A DNA stretch of 64,000 nucleotides, taken from positions 352,001 through 416,000 of the forward strand of contig CAWEYG010000003.1 in assembly GCA_963813155.1 (NCBI GenBank), written 5' to 3'. The notes beneath the pieces were generated by a model. That model was given only the letters and a program-made list of their open reading frames with translations, was not told where the DNA came from and searched no databases. Every line of letters begins with the position of its first letter. Positions within the stretch are counted from its first letter, which is position 1. Position numbers and translations under genes: made by a program. Source of the stretch: an uncultured Acidobacteriota bacterium (GTDB lineage Bacteria; Acidobacteriota; Thermoanaerobaculia; UBA5066; DATFVB01). Positions 3-17,303 of the stretch are shown piece after piece.

Positions 3-1265
3 GGATCGGCCCGGTCGCTCTTCCGCGCGGGCGTGGCGCCCGGCGCGCCCCCGACGGCTCCATACTGGCACCGGCGAAGCGTGGAAGACTCGTTGTACGA
101 GATCGACGACCCTCGCCTCACGGGCGATCCGCGCCCGGCCTACCCGCTGACGGCGCGCATTCGATACGAGTTCGCGGGCACCGAAGGGTCGATCTCTCGA
201 ACCGTCGCGACGCGCACCGTCGATCCGCTCCGCGGGGAGCTGCCGCGGGACCTCGCCGTCGAGCCCGCCGTCTCCCTCCGCGTTCGTCCGCCGCTCGCCA
301 TCGTTCCCCTCGCGAAAGCGGGCGAACGGAACATCGCATTCGAGATCGAGGTGACGAACCATGCCGCCGGAAAGCAGGACGGGAAGCTTCAACTCGCGCC
401 TCCCGCCGGCTGGAAAGTGCCCGAACCCGTCGCGTTCTCGCTCGCGAAAGAAAACGACTCCGACCGCCTCGGGGCCACGCTCGCGGTCCCGAGGGGAGCG
501 AAGGAAGGAACGTACAGCCTGAAGGCGGCCGCCGGCCCGTTCGACCGCACGCTCGACATCCTGGAACATCCCGACATCGCGCCGACGTATTTTCTCAAGC
601 CCGCCGAAGCGAAAATCGAGGTTGTCGACGTGGCGGTTCCGGACAATCTCACGGTCGGCTACGTCCGCGGACCGGAGGATTCGATTCCGGAGTTTCTGCA
701 GCAGCTCGGGATCCACGTCGTATTCCTCGCGCCCGAAGACCTCGAAAAGGGGAACCTCTCCGTCTTCCCGACGATCGTCACCGGGCCGCGGGCGTACGAC
801 GTGCGCGACGACCTGAAGCGCTTTCACCGCCGGCTCATGGAATACGTCCGGAACGGGGGCCGCCTCGTCGTCCAGTACAACACGAACGTGCGCACCTTTC
901 GGGAGTTCCCGTTCTCCGCGTCCTTTTCCCCGGATACCCGGCGAATCACCGTGGAAGACTCGCCGGTCGAGATCCTTCATCCGGAGGACCCGGTCTGGAA
1001 CTTTCCGAACAAGATCACTCTCGCGGACTTCCAGGGCTGGGTCCAGGAGCGGGGCCTCTACTTTCCCGACCAGTGGTCGAGCGACTACACGCCGCTCGTC
1101 AAGATGACCGACCCGGGCGAGGAGCCGCTCCTCGGCGGCACGCTCCTCGCGCACCCCGGGAAAGGAACCTACATTTACACGGCGCTCTCGTGGTTCCGCG
1201 AGCTGCCGGAGGGAGTCCCGGGAGCGATCCGGATCTTCGTGAATCTCATCTCGCCCTCGAAGTAG
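3..1265 (+). CDS. C-terminal part of a PIG-L/LmbE-family large protein (NEW3-like Ig domain plus glutamine-amidotransferase-like domain); 5' truncated by window edge
   Basis: Frame open from window start; motifs VGYVRGPEDSIPEFL, LMEYVRNGGRLVVQYN, FQGWVQERGLYF and YTALSWFRELPEGVPGAIRIFVNLIS are typical of LmbE-family C-termini. Confidence 0.75.
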   Translation, partial: GSARSLFRAGVAPGAPPTAPYWHRRSVEDSLYEIDDPRLTGDPRPAYPLTARIRYEFAGTEGSISRTVATRTVDPLRGELPRDLAVEPAVSLRVRPPLAIVPLAKAGERNIAFEIEVTNHAAGKQDGKLQLAPPAGWKVPEPVAFSLAKENDSDRLGATLAVPRGAKEGTYSLKAAAGPFDRTLDILEHPDIAPTYFLKPAEAKIEVVDVAVPDNLTVGYVRGPEDSIPEFLQQLGIHVVFLAPEDLEKGNLSVFPTIVTGPRAYDVRDDLKRFHRRLMEYVRNGGRLVVQYNTNVRTFREFPFSASFSPDTRRITVEDSPVEILHPEDPVWNFPNKITLADFQGWVQERGLYFPDQWSSDYTPLVKMTDPGEEPLLGGTLLAHPGKGTYIYTALSWFRELPEGVPGAIRIFVNLISPSK

Positions 1266-2683: not shown

Positions 2684-3289
2684 TCAGAGGCCGGGTTTGC
2701 CAGAGAGGCCAGGCTTCCCAGAGAGCCCCGGCTTGCCGGACAGTCCAGGCTTGCCCGAGAGGCCAGGCTTGCCCGAGAGGCCGGGTTTGCCCGAGAGGCC
2801 GGGTTTGCCAGAGAGGCCAGGCTTGCCAGAGAGGCCAGGCTTCCCAGAGAGCCCAGGCTTGCCAGAGAGGCCAGGCTTGCCAGAGAGGCCAGGCTTGCCA
2901 GAGAGGCCAGGCTTCCCAGAGAGCCCCGGCTTGCCAGAGAGCCCAGGCTTGCCTGAGAGGCCGGGTTTGCCAGAGAGGCCAGGCTTCCCAGAGAGCCCCG
3001 GCTTGCCAGAGAGGCCAGGCTTCCCGGAGAGCCCCGGCTTGCCAGAGAGGCCAGGCTTCCCGGAGAGCCCCGGCTTGCCGGACAGTCCAGGCTTGCCCGA
3101 AAGGCCGGGCTTACCCGAAAGGCCCTGCTTGCTGGAGAAGGTCGAGCCGGTGTGGCTCGAGTCGGGAGCCGAAAGCGCCGGGTTGTTTCCCAGGTTTCCG
3201 ACCCGGATCTCGCCCATGTCTTTGCCCGTTCCCGCCTTGATTTTCGCCATCTGCTCTTCAGTCAACTTGATTCGAACATCGTTTGCCAT
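2684..3289 (-). CDS. 201-aa repeat protein: 57-aa N-terminal segment plus (SGKPGL)x24; Gly-X-Y collagen-like or putative multi-core precursor
   Basis: ATG at 3289 with GGAGG 5 nt upstream; repeat invariant in this frame only; TGA at 2684 followed by terminator. Confidence 0.85.
2687..3118. repeat. Coding tandem repeat, 24 x 18 bp
   Basis: Consensus (+) GAGGCCAGGCTTGCCAGA; variation only at unit positions 1, 4, 7, 10, 13, 16; one degenerate unit (SSKQGL) at 3119-3136. Confidence 0.97.
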
Positions 3290-3321
3290 TTTGTCCTCCC
3301 TTTCGTTAGCTATCTCACATC

Positions 3322-3336
3322 GCAAGGGCCGCGCCA
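3322..3336 (-). promoter_or_regulatory. Sigma54 (-24/-12) promoter of the repeat gene
   Basis: Minus strand TGGCGCGGCCCTTGC versus consensus TGGCACG-N4-TTGC; GG-N10-GC spacing exact; predicted start near 3310, just upstream of the RBS. Confidence 0.7.
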
Positions 3337-3421
3337 CCGCGATCCGGCGAAGTCCGGCCCATCAACCCGAACAAAATACAGGCCAAATCCCAGGCCAGCA
3401 CATCGGCTGCAAACAAGCGGA

Positions 3422-3448
3422 GTCAAAATTTGACCGGCAATTTTGATC
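3422..3448. promoter_or_regulatory. Candidate enhancer-binding-protein site(s)
   Basis: Palindrome GTCAAA-A-TTTGAC (3422-3434) plus adjacent similar GGCAATTTTGAT, about 110-135 bp upstream of the predicted sigma54 start. Confidence 0.4.
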
Positions 3449-3687
3449 GAGACGGGGAAAAATTCTCCCTCTTCAGCCCGCAAGAGATCTTCGAGTGGCT
3501 CGGAACCCCCGAATCGTGAATGCGGTGTAAACTGCACGAATGTCACAAGCAAACGGAGACAAGGCTCGCTTCGCCAAGGCGAAGAAGAAGAGATTACGGC
3601 ATCGCGAGAACATGAAGAAGATCCTGTCCCCGCCTCCCGAGCGACCGGCTCGATCCGCGCATTCGCGCCCTTCCAAGTAGAAAGAGC

Positions 3688-4473
3688 TCAGCGCCGGGGT
3701 ACCAGCCCCGAAGGCAGGGAGATTCCCCCGTCGATCGTGAGACACGTTCCGGTCACGTAATCGGCGGCGGAAGAGCAGAGGTAGAGGATCGCGTCCGCCA
3801 CCTCTTCCAGCCGGGCGAGCCTTCGCGCGGGAATCGTCTTCTTCAGCTTCTCCTGCGTCTCGGGGTCCGCGAAGTTCAGGTTCTGGGACGCGCCTTCGGT
3901 CACCATGATCCCGGGAGCGATCGCGTTCACCCGGATTCCCCGCGAGCCCCATTCCGCGGCGAGCGTCTTCGTGATCGAGAGCACTCCCGCCTTCGCCGCG
4001 GCCGAATGGACGACGCCCGGCATCCCCGTTTCGGCATACGTCGCGACGACGTTCACGAGAGCTCCATGTCCCCTCGAAAGCATCCGGCGTCCCACGATCG
4101 ACGAACAGAACCAGGTTCCGTGGAGAACGATTTCCACGACCGCGCGAAATCCGTTCGGCGTCAGCTGCTCCGCCGGCACCAGGAAGTTCCCCGCGGCGTT
4201 GTTGACGAGGATGTCGAGGGGGCCGAGCTCCTTTTCGATGCGTTCGACCGCGGACTCGACGCCTTCCGGCGAGCGGACGTCGGCGGCGACCGGAAGAACA
4301 GCCGTCCCCGCCTTCCGGATCTCCGCGGCAGCCGCTTCGAGCCGCTCGGCCGATCGCGAGAGAATCGCGACGCGGGCGCCCGACTGCGCGAATGCGAGCG
4401 CCGTCGCCTTGCCGAGCCCCGACCCGCCCCCCGTCACGAGGACCGTTTTGGATTCGAATTCCCGATTCGTCAC
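3688..4473 (-). CDS. SDR oxidoreductase, 2,4-dienoyl-CoA reductase-like
   Basis: TGGGSGLG, NNAAGNF, HSAAAKAG, IRVNAIAPG; GTG start overlaps tgt stop, GAGGAGG RBS. Confidence 0.85.
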   Translation of the reverse strand: MTNREFESKTVLVTGGGSGLGKATALAFAQSGARVAILSRSAERLEAAAAEIRKAGTAVLPVAADVRSPEGVESAVERIEKELGPLDILVNNAAGNFLVPAEQLTPNGFRAVVEIVLHGTWFCSSIVGRRMLSRGHGALVNVVATYAETGMPGVVHSAAAKAGVLSITKTLAAEWGSRGIRVNAIAPGIMVTEGASQNLNFADPETQEKLKKTIPARRLARLEEVADAILYLCSSAADYVTGTCLTIDGGISLPSGLVPRR

Positions 4474-8815: not shown

Positions 8816-9430
8816 TCATATCGTCTCGCCGGTGACGATCAGCATGAGCGTGGTGCCGCCGACCTCGAACTCGCCATAATTCTCGAGGTCCGCCCTTTCG
8901 ATTCGCCCCCCGCTGACGAACGTGCCGTTCGTCGAAGCGAGATCCACGAGAGTCACGATGTCGTCAGCGATTTCGACGGCGGCGTGCTCGCGCGAAATCT
9001 CCGAGTCGGAGAGCGCAACGTCGGCTCCCGTACGCCCGATGACAACGCGAGGCTTCTCGATGGGGAAATTCCGGCCCGAATCCGCGCCCGAGATGACCGC
9101 GAGCGAGAGTTTCTTTCCGGCGGGGAGCCTGAGATTCTGCGCCGGCATGGCCGCCCGGAGCTTCGCCAGGACGTACTGCTTCGTCGTTTCGCTCGGAGGG
9201 GGGCTGTCGTGCTCGGGCCTTCTCATCTGGGTCGTATCGCCCGCGCCGACCGGCGCCGGATTCACGACCGGCGGCTCCGGCCGCGTTTCGGAGCGCAGGG
9301 CGACCTCGGGGTTGTGCACCTCGAAGACGGTCTCGCACTTCGTGCAGCGGATTCTCTTCGACGCCTTGCCGTCGAACCGCGACTCCTCGTAGCGATACTT
9401 CGCCCCGCACGAGGCGCACGCCACGATCAT
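8816..9430 (-). CDS. MJ0042-type zinc-ribbon plus FHA domain protein
   Basis: CASCGAKY...[10 protein letters not shown]; FHA motifs [19 protein letters not shown]. Confidence 0.85.
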
Positions 9431-9514
9431 GACCGAAGTCCCTTCGCCGTTGTATTCCGTGTCATCGTGTCGAGAGGCCCCTGGGAGGCATTCTCCCATC
9501 GGCCGCGCGGGAGA

Positions 9515-10646
9515 TCAAGCGTGGACCCGCTCGAGCGCTCTCGCGAGAGCATCGATCACTCGCGGAATTTCCTCCTCGCGGTTGTCCTTCCCGAACGAGA
9601 AACGCAGGGTGGACTTCGCCTCTTCGCGGGTCGCGCCGAGGGCAAGGATCGCGGGCGACGGCTTGCAGCGTCCCGGACGAGCACGCGGACCCAACCGACA
9701 CCGCGATGCCCGCAAGGTCGAGAGAGATCAGCAGGCCCTCTCCCGAGAAACCCGGGAACGCGACCGCCGACGTGTTCGGAAGGCGGAGCGACTCCCGGCC
9801 CCAGATCCTCGCGCCCTCGAACCGGGCGGCCAGCTCCGATTCGAACCGGTCGCGCAGGCGGCCGATACGCTCCCTCGATTCCGACCCCTCCTCGGCGATC
9901 AGCCGGGCGGCCTGGCCGAACCCCACGATTCCCGCGACGTTCTCCGTTCCGCCGCGCCGGCGGCGCTCCTGGCCGCCCCCCGGGAAGAGGGGCTCCAGAT
10001 CGATTCCCTTTCGGGCGTAGAGCGCGCCCGTTCCCTTCGGGCCGTAGATCTTGTGCGCGGAGAGGGAGAGGAGATCGACCCCGAGCCGGCGGACGTCGAT
10101 CGGAATCCGGCCGAGCGCCGACACCGCGTCGCTGTGGACGACGGCCCCGCGCTCCTTCGCCATCGGGGAGATCTCCGCGAGCGGGAAGACCGTCCCGTAC
10201 TCGTTGTTCGCCGCCATTACCGAAACGAGGGCCGCGGCCCCTTCGAGGGCCTTCCGCACGGAATCGGGGTCGAGACGGCCGGTCCGGTCGACGGCGATCA
10301 CGCGAGTCGGATACCCTTCGGCGGCGAGCCGGCGAACGTACTCCGACACGGCCGGATGTTCGACCGCCGTCGTCACGATCGCCGAACCCCTTTCGAACGA
10401 CCTCGCGAGCGAGAGGGCGAGCGCGTCGCTTTCGGTCCCCCCGGAGGTGAAAATGATCTCTTCGGCGGCCCCCGCTCCGATCAGGGCGCCGACCTGCTCG
10501 CGGGCCTCCTCGACGGCCCGGCGGGCTGCCCGTCCGGCCGAATGGACCGAAGACGGGTTTCCCCACGAACCTCTCAGGAACGGGTCCATCGCGGCCGCGA
10601 CGCGGGGGTCCACGGGCGTTGTTGCGTTGTGGTCCAGGTAGATCAC
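9515..10646 (-). CDS. iscS: Cysteine desulfurase (IscS/NifS); apparent frameshift near 9665
   Basis: IYLDHNATT, FTSGGTES, SAHKIYGPKG, GSACSSG; C-terminal LRFSFG in second frame. Confidence 0.9.
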
Positions 10647-10723
10647 GAAGAGGATTCTAACTTCTCCAAAAAAAAGGAATAGTGTGTATTTTGACCGCGT
10701 TAGGATGCAATATCGAGGCTGGA

Positions 10724-13700
10724 ATGCGAATACCGAAATCGATCCGTTTTGTCCTTCTCCTCGCGGGATTCTTCTGTTCGGGCGGTTTTCCGAGCCGCGT
10801 CTTCGGCGAAGACCCGCCGCGCGACGAATCCGTCACGGCCGCTCCCCTGACGAAGGAGGAGAAACAGTGGCTCGACGACGTCGCTCCCCTGATGACGAAG
10901 GAGGAGAAGCGCGTTTACAGCTCTCTCGCGACCCCGGGCCAGCGGACGGCTTTCCGGGACGAGTTCTGGGCCCTGCGCGAGCGGGACGGTCTTCGCCCGC
11001 CCTTCGGCCCGAACTTCAAGAGCCGGTACGAATCGCGGCTCGAGATCGCGAACGCCGACTACGGCGGCCGAAAAACCGACGCCGGACGAATCGTTCTCGC
11101 CCTCGGCGAGCCGACGAGCGTTCTCAAGATCGAATGTGCGGGCGTGAACATCTTTCGCCCGATCGAGATCTGGGCGATGCCGCCGGCCGAAGGGCGCCAG
11201 GTCCCCCAGCGGCTCATCTTCTACCGGGACTACGAGTCCGGCCCCTTGAAGCTCTGGACGCCGATCCTCGGGCAGGAAGTCCTGCTGCAGCCGCTGGAGA
11301 GAGGAACTTCGACCCCGAAGCTCAGCAGCTCTTCAACGCGAGCCGCGACGCCCAGCAGATGTTCTCCGCGCGGTGCGGGCCGAGAGCCACGGAACCCGCG
11401 TGCGACCACGAGTGCGACGTTCTGTGGCCGACGATCATTTCGATGCGGAATTACGGAAACCTCGGCGCGGAGAGCTTCGTGGCCTCGCTCGCGCAGATTC
11501 CGTCCCCTCCGGAAGGGGACTGGAACCACTGGCGGTCGCGGTTCGTCGAAGGGAGTCCATCCCTGGCCCCCTCCACGGCGGCCGCGGCCGGCCCCCTCTC
11601 CGGAATTGTCGACGACTCCGTCGCCGATATCGCAGGAAGAGAGGCAGTGGATCGAGGAAGAGGTGGCCCCGCTCGCGACCGAGGACGAAAAGAGGCTCTA
11701 CCTGGGCCTTCCGTCGCCGAACCAGCGCACGGAGTTTCGCGCCGAATTCTGGCGGACGCGGGAAAAGGAAGGCGCGAAAGCCCCCTTCGGACCGGGATTC
11801 AAAAATCTGTACGAGACTCGCTTCCGGCTCGCCGAGGAAAAATACGGCGGCTGGAAGAGCGATCAGGGCAGGACCGTCCTGACGTTCGGCGTTCCGACGC
11901 AGGTGCTCCCGATCGAGTGTTCGGACGAGTTTCGGCCGATCCAGATCTGGGTTCTGGCGGCGGCGCCCGGACAGCCCGAGCCGCCGCGGCTCGTCTACTA
12001 CCGCGATTTCGACGGGGGCCCGTGGAAGTTGTGGACGCCGGTCATCGGCGAGGACGCCCTTCGCGTCCCTGGCCCGAAAGCGGATTGCAAGCCCGAGATC
12101 CGCGAAGTCCCTTCAGGCGGCGCTCCGCGGCCTGAGAGCCCCGGGGACGTCGGGCATTCTGGAGGAAGTCGGCCAGTTGACGGCATTCCGGCAGCCGCCG
12201 GAGACCGATTGGAACGCGTGGAAGACCCGCCTCGCCGGAAACGGTGCGCCCGCGGCTCTTTCGTCGATCGGCGTCTCGCCGGCGGCGGCCGAAACGCCGG
12301 TCTCTCCCGCCCGGAAACTCACGCGGTCCGACCGTTCGCAGCTCGAGAAGGCCCTGCCGGAGAAGTATCGGGAGTGGCTCTCCGACGTCGAGATGATCAT
12401 GACCGACGCCGAGCGCGACGTCTTCCTCCAGGTCAAGGACAGCATCGAGCGCGACAAGTTCATCGAGGAGTTCTGGCGCCGGCGCTCGATCGACAAGGAC
12501 GGCGTGCGTACGAACTTCCGCGAGGTCTACCGCGCGCGGACCGAATACGCGAGGGAGAATTTCAAGAACCTCTGGTCGGACGCCGCCAAGGTTTACGTCC
12601 TCAACGGCCCCCCGGACGCCATCATCCCGATCGATTGCTCCGAGGTCTTCGTTCCGATTCGAATCTGGTACTACGAACGCCTCGAAGCGTTGCGAAGCAA
12701 GGTGTACCTGATTTTCTACGAGCCGTACGGCGTCCCCGGCGACTGGAAGCTCTGGCTGCCTCTCGACGGGGTCGAGAAGCTCGCCGTCCGCGGGAGTTAC
12801 GACCCGCGCGCCGCGGAATCGCGCTGCTTCGACGCGCGCACGCTGCAGCAGGCGATCGCCGCCGAGAACGCGACTCTCGGAAACGGAATCTCCGGAATGG
12901 CGGAGGCCACGAAGATGTTCGTTCCCCCGCCGGTCGAGACGGAAGGAATCGACCGTTTTCTCGGCCTGACGACGCAGCTGGATGCGGGCGCCGCCTCGAT
13001 CCCGGTCGAAAAGACCTTCCTTTTCCCCGAGGAGAGGGACGGAAAGATCGCGTGCGACATCTCGGTCCTCCTCCCGCGAAAGGATCTTGCGCTGCGCGAT
13101 CTCGGCGACGAGAAGTTCTACGACATCGACCTCATCGGGGAGATCGTTCAGAACGACCGGCTCCTCGACAACTTCAAGTACCGGTTCGACATTCCTTCCG
13201 ACGAGGTCGGCGGCGACAAGCTCCCCCTCACGCTGAGGCGGTACCTCTTTCCGGGCCAGTACGAGTTGCGACTCAAGGCGGCCGACTCCAACCGAAAGGG
13301 CGAGGGACGGTTCGCGCAGGCGTTTCGAGTTCCCGAGAAGCCGGACGCCCCGGCGGCGCTCGTCGCCTCCGCCAGCCTCACGCGCAACCCCGGCGTTCTT
13401 CCGACGGGGGATTTCCGCCCCTCGGCGATCTCGATCCTGCCTCCCGTTCGGGAAATCCTGACCGGACTCCAGCGATTCGAGACGAAGTCGGCGGAAGGAA
13501 TCCTCGCCGTCGATTTCTTCCTCGACGGCATCAAAGTCATGACGCGGACGAAGTCCCCCTTCGACGCCGATCTCAACCTCGGCCCGCTGCCCCGCCGCCA
13601 CGCGGTCAAGGTCGTCGCCTACGACCGCCAGGGCCGCTCGGTCGGCGAGGACGAGCTCAACATCAACGAGGGAAGCGAGTCGTTTCGCGTGAAGATCATC

Positions 13701-14750
13701 GCTCCGCGCCGCGGGACCAACGCCTCCGGCCCGACGACGGTCGTCGCCGATGCGACGGCCCCCGAAGGGCACAAGATCACGAAGATGGAGTTCTTCTCGA
13801 ACAACACGAAAGTCGCGACGCTCTTCCAGCCCCCCTGGCAGCAGATCGTCCCTTTCCACAGCACCGGATCGCTCGGTTACGTCCGGGTCGTCGGGACGCT
13901 CGACGACGGGCTCATCGCCGAAGACCTTCGGTACGTCAACGCGCCGGCGTACATCAGCGAAGTCAACGTGGACGCCGTCGAGCTCTACACGTCCGTGACC
14001 CGCGGAAACCGGCCCGTCGAAGGCCTCGCGGAGACGAACTTCAAGGTCTTCGAGGACGGGAAGGAACAGCAGATCGCGCATTTCGAGCACGTCACGAACC
14101 TGCCCCTCACCGTCGGAGTCGCGATCGACACCTCGGCGTCGATGATCGAGAACCTTCCGGCGGCCGAGAAGGCGGCCGTGGATTTCATCGGCGCGACGCT
14201 CGGCGAAAAGGACCGCGGATTCACGATGTCGTTCGACGACTCCCCGTACACGCTGTGCAAGCTGACGAACAACCGCGAGAGGCTCGGCCGCTCGTTCGCC
14301 GGTCTTCGCGCCGAAGGCTCCACCGCGCTCTACGACGCGATCGTCTACGCGCTGTACCAGTTCCAGGGGGTCCGCGGGAAGAAGGCGCTCGTTCTCCTGA
14401 CCGACGGAAAGGACACCACCTCGAAATACGAGTTCGACACGCTGCTCGACTACGTGAAAAAGGCCGGCGTCGCGGTTTACGCGATCGGCCTGAACATCTC
14501 GAAGGCCGAGCTCGAAGTGAAGTCGAAACTCAATCGCATGGCGGAGGCCTCGGGCGGAACGACGTTCTACATCGACAGTACCCGAAGCCTTCAGAATGTT
14601 TACGGCCAGATCAACAGCGAGCTCCGGACGCAGTACCTGCTGACGTATTACTCGACGAACCCGTCGACCGACAACAAGTGGCGGCGGATCGAGATCAAGA
14701 CGAACCCGACCGCGCTGCTCGCAAGGACGATCTCCGGGTACTACCCCTAG
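10724..14750 (+). CDS. Exported protein with three GWxTD-like domains, Ig-like domains and C-terminal VWA; apparent frameshifts near 11300, 11590 and 12110
   Basis: Signal-like N-terminus; repeated W...EFW..R blocks with GGRKTDAGRI, GGWKSDQGRT, LWSDAAKVYVLNGPPD; VWA DTSASM, TALYDAI, LLTDGKD. Confidence 0.75.
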
Positions 14751-14753
14751 GTC

Positions 14754-15659
14754 TCAGACTTCCGGGTTCACGATCTGCGTCAGGAACCCCTCGTCCTCGC
14801 GCCAGTTCTCTCGCGTGCGGACGCGGAGGTCGAGGTAGAACCGCCCCCCGAAGCGCGCCTCGCACGCCGTGCGCGCGGCCGTGCCGATCTCGCGGATCAT
14901 CGAGCCTCCCCGGCCGATGACGATCGCCTTCTGCCCCTCGCGCTCGACCCAGAGCGTGGCTTCGACGACCGTGAGGCCCTTCTCTTCGTCGAGCCGCAGG
15001 TCGTCGACGACGACCGCGAGAGAGAAGGGCACTTCCTCCCGAGTCAGCGCGAGCGCCGGCTCCCGGATCTGTTCGGCGATCTTCTCCCGGAGGGGGCCGG
15101 GATCGGGCTCCTCCGCGGGGAAAAGGGCCGGCCCCTCTGGCAGCTGGGCCACGATCACCGTCATGAGCTCTTCAACTCCGTCGCCCGTACGGGCGGAGAT
15201 CGGCACGAGGTGGGAAAACGGCGCCAGGGCCGACAGCTCCGAAAGCTGAGGCAGGAGCTTCGATTTTGCGACGCGGTCGATCTTGTTCAGCGCCAGCACG
15301 GAGGGAGGGCCTCCCTCGCCGCGGAGGCGCTCCGCGATGCGGCGCTCGCCCGCGCCGTGCTTCTCCGACGCGTCCACCACGAAGAGCACGGCGTCGCAAC
15401 CCGCCATCGCGTCGAACGCGTCGCGAACCATCGCCGCGTTCATGCGGTGTTCGGGTCGGTGAATGCCGGGAGTATCGACGAGGACGATCTGGGCGCCGGG
15501 ACGGGACGCGACGCCAAGAATCCGCTTTCGGGTCGTCTGGGGCTTGTCCGAAACGATCGCCACCTTCGTTCCCACGAGCCGGTTGACGAGGGTGGATTTT
15601 CCGGCGTTCGGGAGGCCGACGACGGCCACCATGCCGGACCGGAACGGCGCTTCAGACAT
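14754..15659 (-). CDS. era: GTPase Era
   Basis: GLPNAGKSTL, KPQTTR, DTPG, NKID, KH domain VIGRGG. Confidence 0.95.
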   Translation of the reverse strand: MSEAPFRSGMVAVVGLPNAGKSTLVNRLVGTKVAIVSDKPQTTRKRILGVASRPGAQIVLVDTPGIHRPEHRMNAAMVRDAFDAMAGCDAVLFVVDASEKHGAGERRIAERLRGEGGPPSVLALNKIDRVAKSKLLPQLSELSALAPFSHLVPISARTGDGVEELMTVIVAQLPEGPALFPAEEPDPGPLREKIAEQIREPALALTREEVPFSLAVVVDDLRLDEEKGLTVVEATLWVEREGQKAIVIGRGGSMIREIGTAARTACEARFGGRFYLDLRVRTRENWREDEGFLTQIVNPEV

Positions 15660-16887
15660 TCGACGCCGGCACCGCGGCCTCGGCGACCGGTTCGACGCGC
15701 ACGCGAAGCACGCGCCGGCGGTCCGCTTCCTCCACGATGAATCTCAGCGCGTCTTCCTCGCGCTTCTCGCCGACCTTGGGGATCCGACCGAGTCTCGCCG
15801 CGAGAAACCCGCCCAGGGTGTCGAACTCCTCGTCTTTCGGGCCCCGGCCGAACAGCTCGTGGAGAATCTCGACGTGAGTCTTTCCGGAGATCGAGTAGGC
15901 CCCGCCGGGCAGCTCGACGACGGCCTCGCCCTCGTCCTCGTGCTCGTCGGCGATCTCGCCGACGATCTCCTCGAGAAGGTCCTCGATCGTAACGAGCCCG
16001 GAAACACTGCCGTACTCGTCGACGACCACCGCAATCGCGAGATGCTTCCGCTGGAATTCCCGCAGGAGCTCCGCCGTCTTCTTCGTCTCGGGCACGAAGT
16101 GGACGGGCCGCGCGATTTCGGAGAGCGTTCGCGACACGTTGCGCCTCACCGCCTCGAAGACGTCCTTCACGTGGAGGATCCCCGTCACCTGGTCGATCGT
16201 TCCCTTGTACACGGGAAGGCGCGAATACTTCGTCTCGACGAAGAGGTCCGCCACCCGATCGAGGGACGTCTCGTCTCCCACCGCGACGAGGTCGGTCCTC
16301 GGCGTCATCACTTCCTTGACAGTGGTGTCCCCGAAGTCGACGATCGAAAGGAGGAGTTTTTCCTCTTCCCGTTCGAGGATCCCCTCCTCCCGCCCGACTT
16401 CGATATAGGCCTGGATTTCTTCGTCGGAGGCCGGCCCTTCGTCCTCCGTTCTCGCTTCGAAGATCGCCCGCACGGGCCATGCGAGGGGGCGGATCACCCA
16501 GGAAAAAAGGGAAATGGCCGGATGAAGGCTCGTCAGGAGCTTTTCGGGCGCGGCCCCGGAGACTGCCCGCAGGAGCGCTCCCTCGATCAGCAGCCAGCCG
16601 AGCAGAAATACCGCCCCTCCGAGCATCCAGGGAGCGGGGACATCGAGAGCCGTCAGCCCGCGAATGAGCGTCCAGAGGCCGGCGAGCAGCAGAATCTGCA
16701 CGAGCACCTTCAACGTCGTCTTGACGACCGCCGGCTCCTCTTTGCCCGAAAGCAGAGACAGGGCCTTCGGATGCTCGTCCAGGAGCCCGCGGAGCTTGAT
16801 CGGCGAGAGCCGGTCGAGCGCCTGGTAGAACAGCTCGAAGAGCAGGAAGCCGCAGAGACAGAGGGCCGAAAGAAGAAGGGAAATCAT
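15652..16887 (-). CDS. Hemolysin/CNNM-CBS-CorC family protein
   Basis: N-terminal TMs; VKEVMTPR, YSRLPVY, VVDEYGSVSGLVTIEDLLEEIVGEI. Confidence 0.9.
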   Translation of the reverse strand: MISLLLSALCLCGFLLFELFYQALDRLSPIKLRGLLDEHPKALSLLSGKEEPAVVKTTLKVLVQILLLAGLWTLIRGLTALDVPAPWMLGGAVFLLGWLLIEGALLRAVSGAAPEKLLTSLHPAISLFSWVIRPLAWPVRAIFEARTEDEGPASDEEIQAYIEVGREEGILEREEEKLLLSIVDFGDTTVKEVMTPRTDLVAVGDETSLDRVADLFVETKYSRLPVYKGTIDQVTGILHVKDVFEAVRRNVSRTLSEIARPVHFVPETKKTAELLREFQRKHLAIAVVVDEYGSVSGLVTIEDLLEEIVGEIADEHEDEGEAVVELPGGAYSISGKTHVEILHELFGRGPKDEEFDTLGGFLAARLGRIPKVGEKREEDALRFIVEEADRRRVLRVRVEPVAEAAVPASNV

Positions 16888-17303
16888 CGAGCCGTCGAAA
16901 GCCGGCGCCGCAGCTTTCCCTCGAGCTCGTCCATTTCGCCCCCGTCCGTCTCGTGGTCGTACCCGAGCAGGTGGAGCAGTCCGTGGAGAAGGAGTTTTTC
17001 GACGATCTTCGGGAACGTCGACCGGACCTGCCGCGCCTGCCGCCGGGCCTCGGGCGCCGAGACGATCAAGTCGCCGAGGAAACCCTTTCTCCGTTCCCCG
17101 GAGGGGAAGGACAGCACGTCGGTCGTCCTGTCCTTGTGCCGGTACGTTCGGTTCAGCCGCCTCATCGCGGAATCACCGCAATAGAGAACGGAAATCTCCG
17201 CCGCCGAATGTCCGGAGAGCGCAAGGGCGCGATTCAGGAACTTCTTCGTTCGCGCGGCCGGGTACCCCGGGCGCTTCAGGGTCGATCGAACGTCGACCTT
17301 CAT
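16884..17303 (-). CDS. ybeY: rRNA maturation RNase YbeY
   Basis: LNRTYRHKDRTTDVLSF, HGLLHLLGYDH. Confidence 0.93.
   Translation of the reverse strand: MKVDVRSTLKRPGYPAARTKKFLNRALALSGHSAAEISVLYCGDSAMRRLNRTYRHKDRTTDVLSFPSGERRKGFLGDLIVSAPEARRQARQVRSTFPKIVEKLLLHGLLHLLGYDHETDGGEMDELEGKLRRRLSTAR

Follow-up and report, generated by a model that had tools for sequence, protein, structure and literature searches.

A stray but intact (SGKPGL)24 gene belongs to a family of leader-bearing repeat peptides linked to an RRE-M50-HlyD protease in Acidobacteriota

The 64,000-nucleotide stretch of an uncultured Acidobacteriota genome considered here (contig CAWEYG010000003.1, positions 352,001 to 416,000; the whole stretch is called the window below) carries on its minus strand an open reading frame (ORF) of 201 codons whose product ends in 24 perfect copies of the hexapeptide SGKPGL. 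What might such a protein do, and does its resemblance to collagen have any part in it? An earlier reading of the letters alone (the sequence-only reading) offered two answers: a cytoplasmic collagen-like polycation, or a leader followed by tandem identical cores, as in the precursors of peptides that are made by the ribosome and altered after translation (RiPPs), with the maturation enzymes encoded elsewhere. The answer favored here is that the gene is a stray but intact member of a sigma-54-dependent precursor-peptide family of Acidobacteriota, that its leader is probably bound and removed by a membrane protease which joins a RiPP recognition element (RRE) to an M50 metalloprotease domain and an HlyD-type adaptor, and that the cationic repeat is then released or, with less assurance than its processing, exported.

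The repeat gene

A unique N-terminus of 57 amino acids precedes residues 58-201, which are 24 exact SGKPGL units that run up to the stop codon with Leu as the C-terminal residue. Glycine is spaced by three throughout residues 56-200 (49 Gly, 48 complete G-X-Y triplets), and the array contains 24 Lys and no Asp, Glu or Arg (pI 11.4). Since the Kyte-Doolittle hydropathy of the protein over 15 residues peaks at 0.007, it has neither a signal peptide nor a transmembrane helix. The neighboring genes encode an amino-acid permease, an SDR protein and TGT, and neither the regulator nor the RRE-M50-HlyD operon of the cassettes described below adjoins the gene. The sequence-only reading was accurate in all of this, namely the ORF and its 24 units, the Gly at every third residue from 56, the 24 Lys without an acidic residue, the missing signal peptide and membrane helix, and the neighbors. 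An alternative GTG start at 3337 would yield a 217-amino-acid product; the ATG is taken as the start because all orthologs start there and a GGAGG precedes it.

At the DNA level, Tandem Repeats Finder reports a period of 18, 24.8 copies and 85% matches. The 24 units are written in 12 distinct 18-nt forms, whose differences are all synonymous third-position changes (Lys is specified only by AAG and AAA), with 43 synonymous versus no amino-acid differences. This bias goes well beyond chance. At least 12 independent codon variants have thus arisen, none of which changes the peptide, and clear selection on this reading frame is therefore indicated.

The Pfam Collagen model (PF01391) matches the protein with E = 2.9e-27 (94.6 bits; cut-off 27.2), and the NCBIfam models for the Scl and Lcl adhesins score 41-71 bits against cut-offs of 325-500. 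The Pfam and NCBIfam searches found no domain besides Collagen and no trimerization domain; the N-terminus alone (58 aa) had zero matches in NCBIfam, the histone H1-like models NF038053 and NF038052 did not match the protein at E <= 10, and a search of the ESM Atlas with residues 1-57 gave no usable match. In an AlphaFold2 monomer model only the leader helix is formed, and the repeat is unstructured, which is uninformative for a trimer.

A conserved leader followed by lineage-specific repeats

A word-indexed search with residues 1-57 returned two proteins that have this N-terminus in common and whose repeats are free of Gly. In an alignment of 24 such leaders, 12 columns are invariant, with Leu, Thr, Gln, Ile and Glu-Ile-Arg-Val positions among them, and mean column identity is 79%; the target leader is 59-80% identical to the 23 orthologous ones, and the conservation covers the first ~40 residues. 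Residues 1-45 matched 61 of 301 whole genomes of the class Thermoanaerobaculia. With the source genome excluded, these are 4 of 4 genomes of family f1, 40 of 43 of f2, 14 of 27 of f3, 2 of 72 of f5 and none of the rest. (The tallies of 61 in 301 include the unpublished genomes G104 and G004, whose loci L007 and L032, respectively, are among the loci counted below.) A profile of the leader compared with 1.84 billion representative sequences gave 140 clusters at E <= 1e-3 and 79 at E <= 1e-10, the best down to 1e-24, and nearly all of these are short proteins matched at their N-terminus. Among the weaker matches, from which 42 sequences were fetched, a related leader is followed by single short cores, by Ala/Lys repeats, or by several units that each stand after Arg-Ala-Asn-Pro. 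The leader has no model in Pfam or NCBIfam, and ten distant family members gave nothing significant in NCBIfam; one distant member matches the Burkholderia H1-like model at E = 5.8e-7 with 30 bits, the cut-off being 80.

Two assignments for the leader were considered and dropped. The stretch LTEEQ..IKAG looked similar to a double-glycine leader, which was rejected because the conservation continues for 20 residues beyond the putative Gly-Gly and the cassette has no C39 or ABC gene; an AbrB-like or ribbon-helix-helix fold, considered by eye, had no support in the Pfam search. Four proteins of 224-505 aa (P0005, P0011, P0015 and P0072) have the leader and then an Arg/Ala/Pro-rich run, and are probably gene calls that pass through a frame error in a high-GC repeat.

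What stands after the leader differs from lineage to lineage. Thirty loci were fetched, of which 23 were parsed (the seven missed by the start pattern are left out), and their tails are built of SPKL, SGKSL, KSPSL, AAPRN or SSKDL, or of Ala/Arg/Lys-rich units of 8-11 residues. Across the 19 full-length members tabulated the repeats are mostly without Gly and their period lies between 4 and 11 (including 4, 5, 8, 9, 10 and 11), so no single structural periodicity is conserved. SGKPGL is restricted to the genus of the target, where it occurs in the source genome and at locus L007 of a second species (G104); this same-genus copy is the only one of the 22 other parsed loci that has G-X-Y repeats. 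The sister genus in the same family has SGKSL and SPKL, and related units of six, five and four residues therefore occur within one family. Because each species adds a different short repeat to the leader, mostly one without glycine, the collagen-like periodicity of the target is probably a genus-level quirk and its collagen look incidental. The collagen alternative of the sequence-only reading thus fares poorly, since repeats without Gly at every third residue, the very finding that it had named as telling against collagen, are found in the orthologs, those of the sister genus included. There is a warning for annotation in this, as the strong Pfam Collagen match here appears to be compositional.

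The tabulated tails contain 16-26 Lys plus Arg. Acidic residues number 0-2 in fifteen of the 19 and 10-24 in the other four, and one tail is neutral, so that a polycation is common in the family and not universal. Within one precursor the units stay identical while synonymous sites drift, and where a genome has both stray and cassette copies (the source genome and G204) these share the unit and the C-terminal ending. Such a pattern is in keeping with a product that depends on its exact short sequence and differs in it between species.

The leader of the target ends in Asn-Asn-Pro (residues 35-37). Comparison of the Thermoanaerobaculia and Blastocatellia leader profiles by hhalign gave a probability of 98.6% and E = 1.2e-15, and it aligns this Asn-Asn-Pro with the Arg-Ala-Asn-Pro found in front of each unit in the precursors from Blastocatellia; no evident repeated cleavage motif is present in the Thermoanaerobaculia members, in contrast to the Arg-Ala-Asn-Pro of those from Blastocatellia. 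From this alignment, and because daptide leaders have Pro at position -1 (see below), we infer that the target may be cleaved directly after Pro37.

The cassette and its protease

The source genome (3.8 Mb, 23 contigs, 90.8% complete) contains exactly three copies of the leader, two within cassettes and the target outside them. In the cassette, genes for an HlyD-type adaptor, a 238-aa soluble histidine kinase and a PrsR-like sigma-54 response regulator (TIGR02915, E = 1.8e-128, below the cut-off) are followed by the precursor gene and then by a convergent operon, which encodes a STAS protein, a GAF-GAF-HlyD protein and a protein of 731 aa with an M50 membrane domain and a C-terminal HlyD part. 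The conserved genes besides that of the precursor are those for HlyD, kinase, regulator, STAS, GAF-HlyD and protease; the STAS gene, matched in 20 of 22 loci, is the seventh conserved member.

Leader gene and cassette are closely linked. Among the 30 loci with 1.5-kb flanks the regulator gene lies directly upstream in 27 and the M50-HlyD gene downstream in 23, and L032 from G004 counts toward both numbers; the four loci with the regulator only end short on the M50 side. Neither gene is seen at the target, at a second stray copy and on a contig of 1.1 kb. When the flanks are extended to 18 kb, all 18 of the fully flanked relatives, like the two cassettes of the source genome, have the same full gene order. 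The two also occur together across the 301 genomes, in which the RRE-M50 part of the protease matched 61: leader and protease were both found in 58, the leader only in three (two of them fragmentary, one a weak match), the protease only in three (one fragmentary, two with weak matches near 1e-21) and neither in 237, these being counts without a statistic from genomes whose kin are not independent. In metagenome-assembled genomes (MAGs) of the Blastocatellia/Pyrinomonadaceae the gene order is rearranged and the partners are kept: of 12 loci, 11 have the regulator gene upstream and 11 have the M50 gene. That the linkage outlasts such rearrangement in two classes speaks for a common function. One annotated Blastocatellia locus also has a STAS gene and a gene for an FHA-GAF-PP2C phosphatase.

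Some further features of these cassettes may be recorded. In the Blastocatellia/Pyrinomonadaceae cassettes L058, L061 and L064-L066 (2024-5241 in L066) an FHA-GAF-SpoIIE (PP2C) phosphatase gene stands beside that for STAS, and the two resemble a partner-switching pair; a second small M50-like gene lies 5' of the kinase gene in the cassettes of this group, and the kinase has a HAMP domain. Loci L057 and L061, which are labeled as uncultured Clostridia and Heliobacteriaceae MAGs, carry an acidobacterial-type cassette and precursor, and may represent mislabeled bins or transfer. Two tandem leader genes lie 700-830 nt apart at one cassette in G076:C75, G172:C138 and G228:C2.

The cassette protease, which has an intact gene at 4227-6422 of L004, has an unbroken HELGH motif. 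The NCBIfam model for the daptide intramembrane metalloprotease (NF041824), 379 positions long, aligns with it from 6 to 369 (E = 2.4e-34) and scores 119 bits against a cut-off of 300, and the YydH/LiaK model matches at E = 2.3e-11, which is also below cut-off. Its cytoplasmic N-domain of ~170 residues had no match in Pfam at E <= 10 and none in a PDB profile search at the same threshold. The AlphaFold2 model of this domain, for which 20 aligned rows were used, has a mean pLDDT of 69 that rises to about 80 in residues 30-120. It shows three strands and then three helices, and the ten best Foldseek matches to it in the PDB are all RREs, including TbiB1 with a leader peptide, PqqD, CteB and a lasso-peptide B1 protein; the TbiB1 match has E = 8.8e-3, probability 1.00 and a target TM of 0.73-0.77 (0.67 for PqqD). 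PbtF, TruD, LynD, TigE and McbBCD rank after these ten. The E-values are modest and it is the consistency of the matches that counts, by which the modeled N-domain folds like RiPP recognition elements. One homolog of the protease has a precomputed PqqD match in Pfam, and the JGI name of the family is "putative peptide zinc metalloprotease protein." A complex prediction for the RRE domain (residues 28-125) with the leader scored 0.00, gives no verdict and is used neither way.

The RiPP-like alternative of the sequence-only reading therefore survives in part. The layout of a leader with tandem identical cores and a maturation enzyme encoded elsewhere agrees with the leader family and with the two cassettes of the source genome that contain an RRE-M50-HlyD gene. 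The enzymes expected to modify Ser, Lys or Pro did not appear: the cassette conserves only regulators, HlyD-type adaptors and the protease, with no conserved radical-SAM, YcaO or ATP-grasp gene. A prolyl hydroxylase search of the genome gave a single PF13640 match (2OG-Fe(II) oxygenase, C1:65597-65830), which has an in-frame TGA, is unlinked to the three leader loci and offers no evidence for hydroxylation.

The stray locus and its control elements

The target is regarded as a stray copy because its neighbors are the permease, SDR and TGT genes while the cassette occurs twice elsewhere in the genome. As judged from its sequence it is nonetheless a complete monocistronic sigma-54 unit, with a predicted promoter, dyads, ribosome binding site and terminator (Table 1), the last of which should make it monocistronic. 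The pattern TGGYN7TTGCR has a single match in the window, on the strand of the gene, and since 50 of 100 shuffled sequences also have one this is not significant alone; a TGGY-N7-TTGC element lies 43-81 nt upstream of the start in all 25 orthologous upstream regions. Dyads of the form TGAA-N3-TTCA occur at -140 to -162 in seven of the 25 loci (8 sites versus a shuffle mean of 0.62 and maximum of 4), and between -230 and -100 these 25 loci have 39 dyad half-sites versus a shuffle mean of 2.3 and maximum of 7. The source genome has rpoN, and the stray gene is presumably served in trans by the cassette regulators. Its locus beside the SDR gene, with the SGKPGL unit, is kept in the second species of the genus (G104), and another genus has a stray copy too (G204:C51), whose unit is the same as that of its cassette copy. 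The records listed for window positions 3100-3700 include no RNA dataset; all are DNA contigs from soil or rhizosphere, and the highest word share among them is 0.43.

Table 1. Features of the stray (SGKPGL)24 gene, with positions in the window
Feature	Position	Strand	Basis
Whole ORF with stop codon, 201 aa (leader, linker and 24 SGKPGL units); ATG at 3289, stop at 2684-2686	2684-3289	minus	
Conserved leader, residues 1-37, terminating in Asn-Asn-Pro; helix predicted at residues 11-21 (AlphaFold2 monomer)	3179-3289	minus	24-row alignment, profile search and hhalign
Variable linker, residues 38-57, separating leader from repeat array	3119-3178	minus	ORF reading and leader alignment
Array of 24 SGKPGL units, residues 58-201; 12 DNA variants; 24 Lys, 0 acidic residues	2687-3118	minus	
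Shine-Dalgarno sequence GGAGG, 5 nt 5' of the ATG	3295-3299	minus	GGAGG-type site before nearly all ortholog starts listed
Predicted sigma-54 type -24/-12 promoter, TGGC-N7-TTGCG, 32 nt before the ATG	3321-3336	minus	Pattern match and orthologs
Enhancer-like AT-rich dyads: 13-nt palindrome (3422-3434) and two imperfect copies	3422-3470	minus	
Intrinsic terminator: hairpin of 12 pairs (8 G-C), then T run, 20 nt past the stop codon	2637-2664	minus	

Because the permease and precursor genes converge on the terminator hairpin, which has A and T runs on both sides, it may serve both. On the other side of the permease gene, 5' of it, the window has a 410-aa ORF (33-1265, plus strand) of coding-like composition with no Pfam match at E <= 1e-5.

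Proposed function and alternatives

In the mechanism favored here, a PrsR-like response regulator from either of the cassettes elsewhere in the genome would bind the dyads and activate the -24/-12 promoter. The ~37-aa leader of the 201-aa product would then be bound by the PqqD-like RRE at the cytoplasmic N-terminus of the M50 (site-2) intramembrane metalloprotease, which is fused to a periplasmic HlyD adaptor. The protease would cut the leader off, probably right past Asn-Asn-Pro, and the remaining Gly/Pro/Lys repeat of ~160 residues and charge +25 would be released, most likely outward by way of the HlyD-type adaptors. The cytoplasmic location given to the product by the sequence-only reading seems doubtful, since the partner spans the envelope.

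A number of observations weigh against this mechanism. The conserved genes of the cassette include no ABC, RND or MFS pump that could drive export, and the protease operon converges on the precursor gene instead of being cotranscribed with it. The target lies more than 350 kb from the nearest cassette, the kinase is a soluble protein of 238 residues without a sensor, and the tails with 10-24 acidic residues (4 of 19) and the neutral one show that not all members have a net positive charge. With its many signaling parts (STAS and GAF, and PP2C in Blastocatellia), the cassette might also serve regulation instead of secretion. Both cassettes of the source genome have irregularities as well. The precursor gene of the first (L004; G000:C3, about 3430-4290) encodes ~26 SGKPG(L/M) units, a frame break and ~12 more units in another frame, and ends in the same unit and stop as the target; the break could be either a one-base sequencing error or a real frameshift. 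In the second (L005; G000:C4:108000-127999, 8896-17250), which is 65-96% identical to the first, tblastn finds the kinase in two pieces, the regulator in three, the protease in several and GAF-HlyD in four, and the precursor is broken soon past the leader. This cassette may be a decaying duplicate or lie on a low-quality contig, its breaks being decay or sequencing errors.

The absence of a pump, like that of a signal peptide on the target, would suit a product that stays inside the cell. SpoIVFB acts on pro-sigma-K at the cytoplasmic face of its membrane, and the cassette protease might likewise clip the leader there and free a tail that binds DNA or polyphosphate in the manner of histone H1 or AlgP. 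The tails are rich in Ser, Ala, Pro, Lys and Arg with their 16-26 basic residues, one distant member has the below-cut-off match to the Burkholderia H1-like model (E = 5.8e-7), and the SPKL units resemble the SPKK DNA-binding motif. We consider this unlikely, however, as conservation of the protease goes along with that of three HlyD-type periplasmic adaptors, including the one fused to it, some of the tails are only weakly basic or are neutral, and neither the acidic Blastocatellia units delimited by Arg-Ala-Asn-Pro nor the single short cores look like DNA binders. A collagen-like triple helix, in which (GKP-GLS)24 trimerizes to a cationic rod of ~40 nm as the functional form in this one genus, is compatible with leader processing and could draw on the 48 unbroken triplets, the Pfam Collagen score (94.6 bits over a cut-off of 27.2), the perfect conservation of the hexapeptide under purifying selection, and the recurrence of SGKPGL in a cassette copy and in the second species (G104). 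It is nevertheless quite unlikely in view of the ortholog periods of 4, 5, 8, 9, 10 and 11, mostly without Gly, and of SGKSL and SPKL in the sister genus; moreover there is no trimerization domain (the leader is the sole folded part), the 24 Lys have no counter-charge, the Scl and Lcl scores are far under their cut-offs, and the repeat is unstructured in the monomer model, although the latter says little about a trimer.

The position of the target away from any cassette and the frame breaks in the other copies of this assembly could also mean that the stray copy is a leftover duplicate without a function of its own. This is very improbable: its frame is intact, with 43 synonymous and no amino-acid differences among the units, the promoter, dyads, ribosome binding site and terminator are all retained, the SDR-adjacent locus is conserved in the second species (G104), and the stray copy of another genus likewise has the unit of its cassette copy. 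Leader removal by the RRE-M50-HlyD protease thus remains the preferred reading. It might be carried further, to a peptide-pheromone circuit in diderm bacteria, in which the array would be a multi-copy precursor of a species-specific hexapeptide or polymer that is released by RRE-M50-HlyD, sensed by the HlyD-kinase-sigma-54 regulator system and fed back on the precursor promoter, with stray copies as amplifiers. That extension is speculative and on balance unlikely. Several features would suit a signal for self-recognition: the units differ between species, selection keeps them identical within a protein, the cassette and stray copies of a genome have them in common, and in Blastocatellia a repeated motif that resembles a cleavage site bounds the units.

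If the proposed mechanism is right, many uncultured Acidobacteria of soils possess a machine that is dedicated to unmodified, species-specific repeat peptides and is under tight regulation, which spans at least two classes and is present in 58 of the 301 sampled genomes of this class. RRE-guided leader removal would then reach beyond tailored natural products, and the cassette would be a testable case of a membrane protease that passes a peptide to a periplasmic conduit without a pump. The family would also provide, in nature, a set of polycationic repeat peptides that includes a collagen-like one, and these could act in the matrix, in signaling or in antagonism. The union of leader-recognition domain, intramembrane protease and envelope adaptor in one protein is undescribed in the searchable literature: a full-text search, with supplements and most subscription journals outside its scope, found no description of this cassette or leader. 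The main text of the RRE-Finder paper (PMC7470986) mentions none of M50, metalloprotease, HlyD or Acidobacteria, and the supplementary RRE family lists of that paper and of the daptide papers could include these proteins.

Comparison with known systems

The closest parallel is with the daptides, in which an RRE is fused N-terminally to a site-2 protease; this peptidase, MpaP, takes off a leader that has Pro at -1 (daptide preprint). The cassette protease similarly has an N-terminal RRE and an M50/S2P membrane domain with HExxH, aligns nearly full length with NF041824, and is encoded near short precursors whose conserved leader terminates in Pro. It differs from MpaP in its score (119 bits against the cut-off of 300) and in the HlyD part fused to its C-terminus. 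The cassette also has no conserved MpaB, MpaC, MpaD or MpaM tailoring genes, its precursors finish in tandem repeats and not in an invariant Thr, the leader motif is different, control is by sigma-54, and the hosts are diderm Acidobacteriota as opposed to Actinomycetota or Bacillota.

Two other M50 or related proteases act on peptides or their leaders: EpeP is thought both to cleave and to export its epipeptide (review), and an S2P-clan protease removes a bacteriocin leader (2026 paper). Like EpeP/YydH, as that system is described there, the cassette protease is an intramembrane M50 enzyme, and it matches the YydH/LiaK model. The match is below the cut-off of that model, however, no radical-SAM epimerase accompanies it, and the RRE and HlyD parts are extra.

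In systems of the ComC/ComAB/ComDE type, peptides with a double-glycine leader are exported by PCAT and HlyD proteins and act in a two-component loop. The cassette shares with these an unmodified peptide that bears a leader, the coupling of a protease to a conduit through the envelope with an HlyD adaptor, and an adjoining kinase and regulator that probably drive the precursor gene. Its protease is an M50 enzyme with an RRE, its regulator a sigma-54 activator and its cores long tandem repeats; the conserved genes of the cassette, to which the search for C39 was confined, include neither a C39 peptidase nor an ABC transporter.

The target has the unbroken G-X-Y triplets and the Pfam Collagen match of Scl1/Scl2, BclA and Lcl, but it is without their signal peptide, anchor and trimerization domain, uses two triplet types only, and belongs to a family in which the orthologs outside its genus do not keep the periodicity. 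Histone H1-like and AlgP-type polycations have short tandem Lys/Ala/Pro/Ser repeats and a very high pI; the target has short tandem repeats and a very high pI as well, and we know of no cleavable conserved leader or protease-adaptor partner in those proteins. In the yeast alpha-factor, the fungal Kex2-processed repeat proteins and the ustiloxin precursor each unit is bounded by a dibasic site that is cut by a protease of the secretory pathway. No evident repeated cleavage motif of this kind is present in the Thermoanaerobaculia members, yet these share with the eukaryotic multi-copy precursors the presence of many identical short units in each precursor and selection on each unit.

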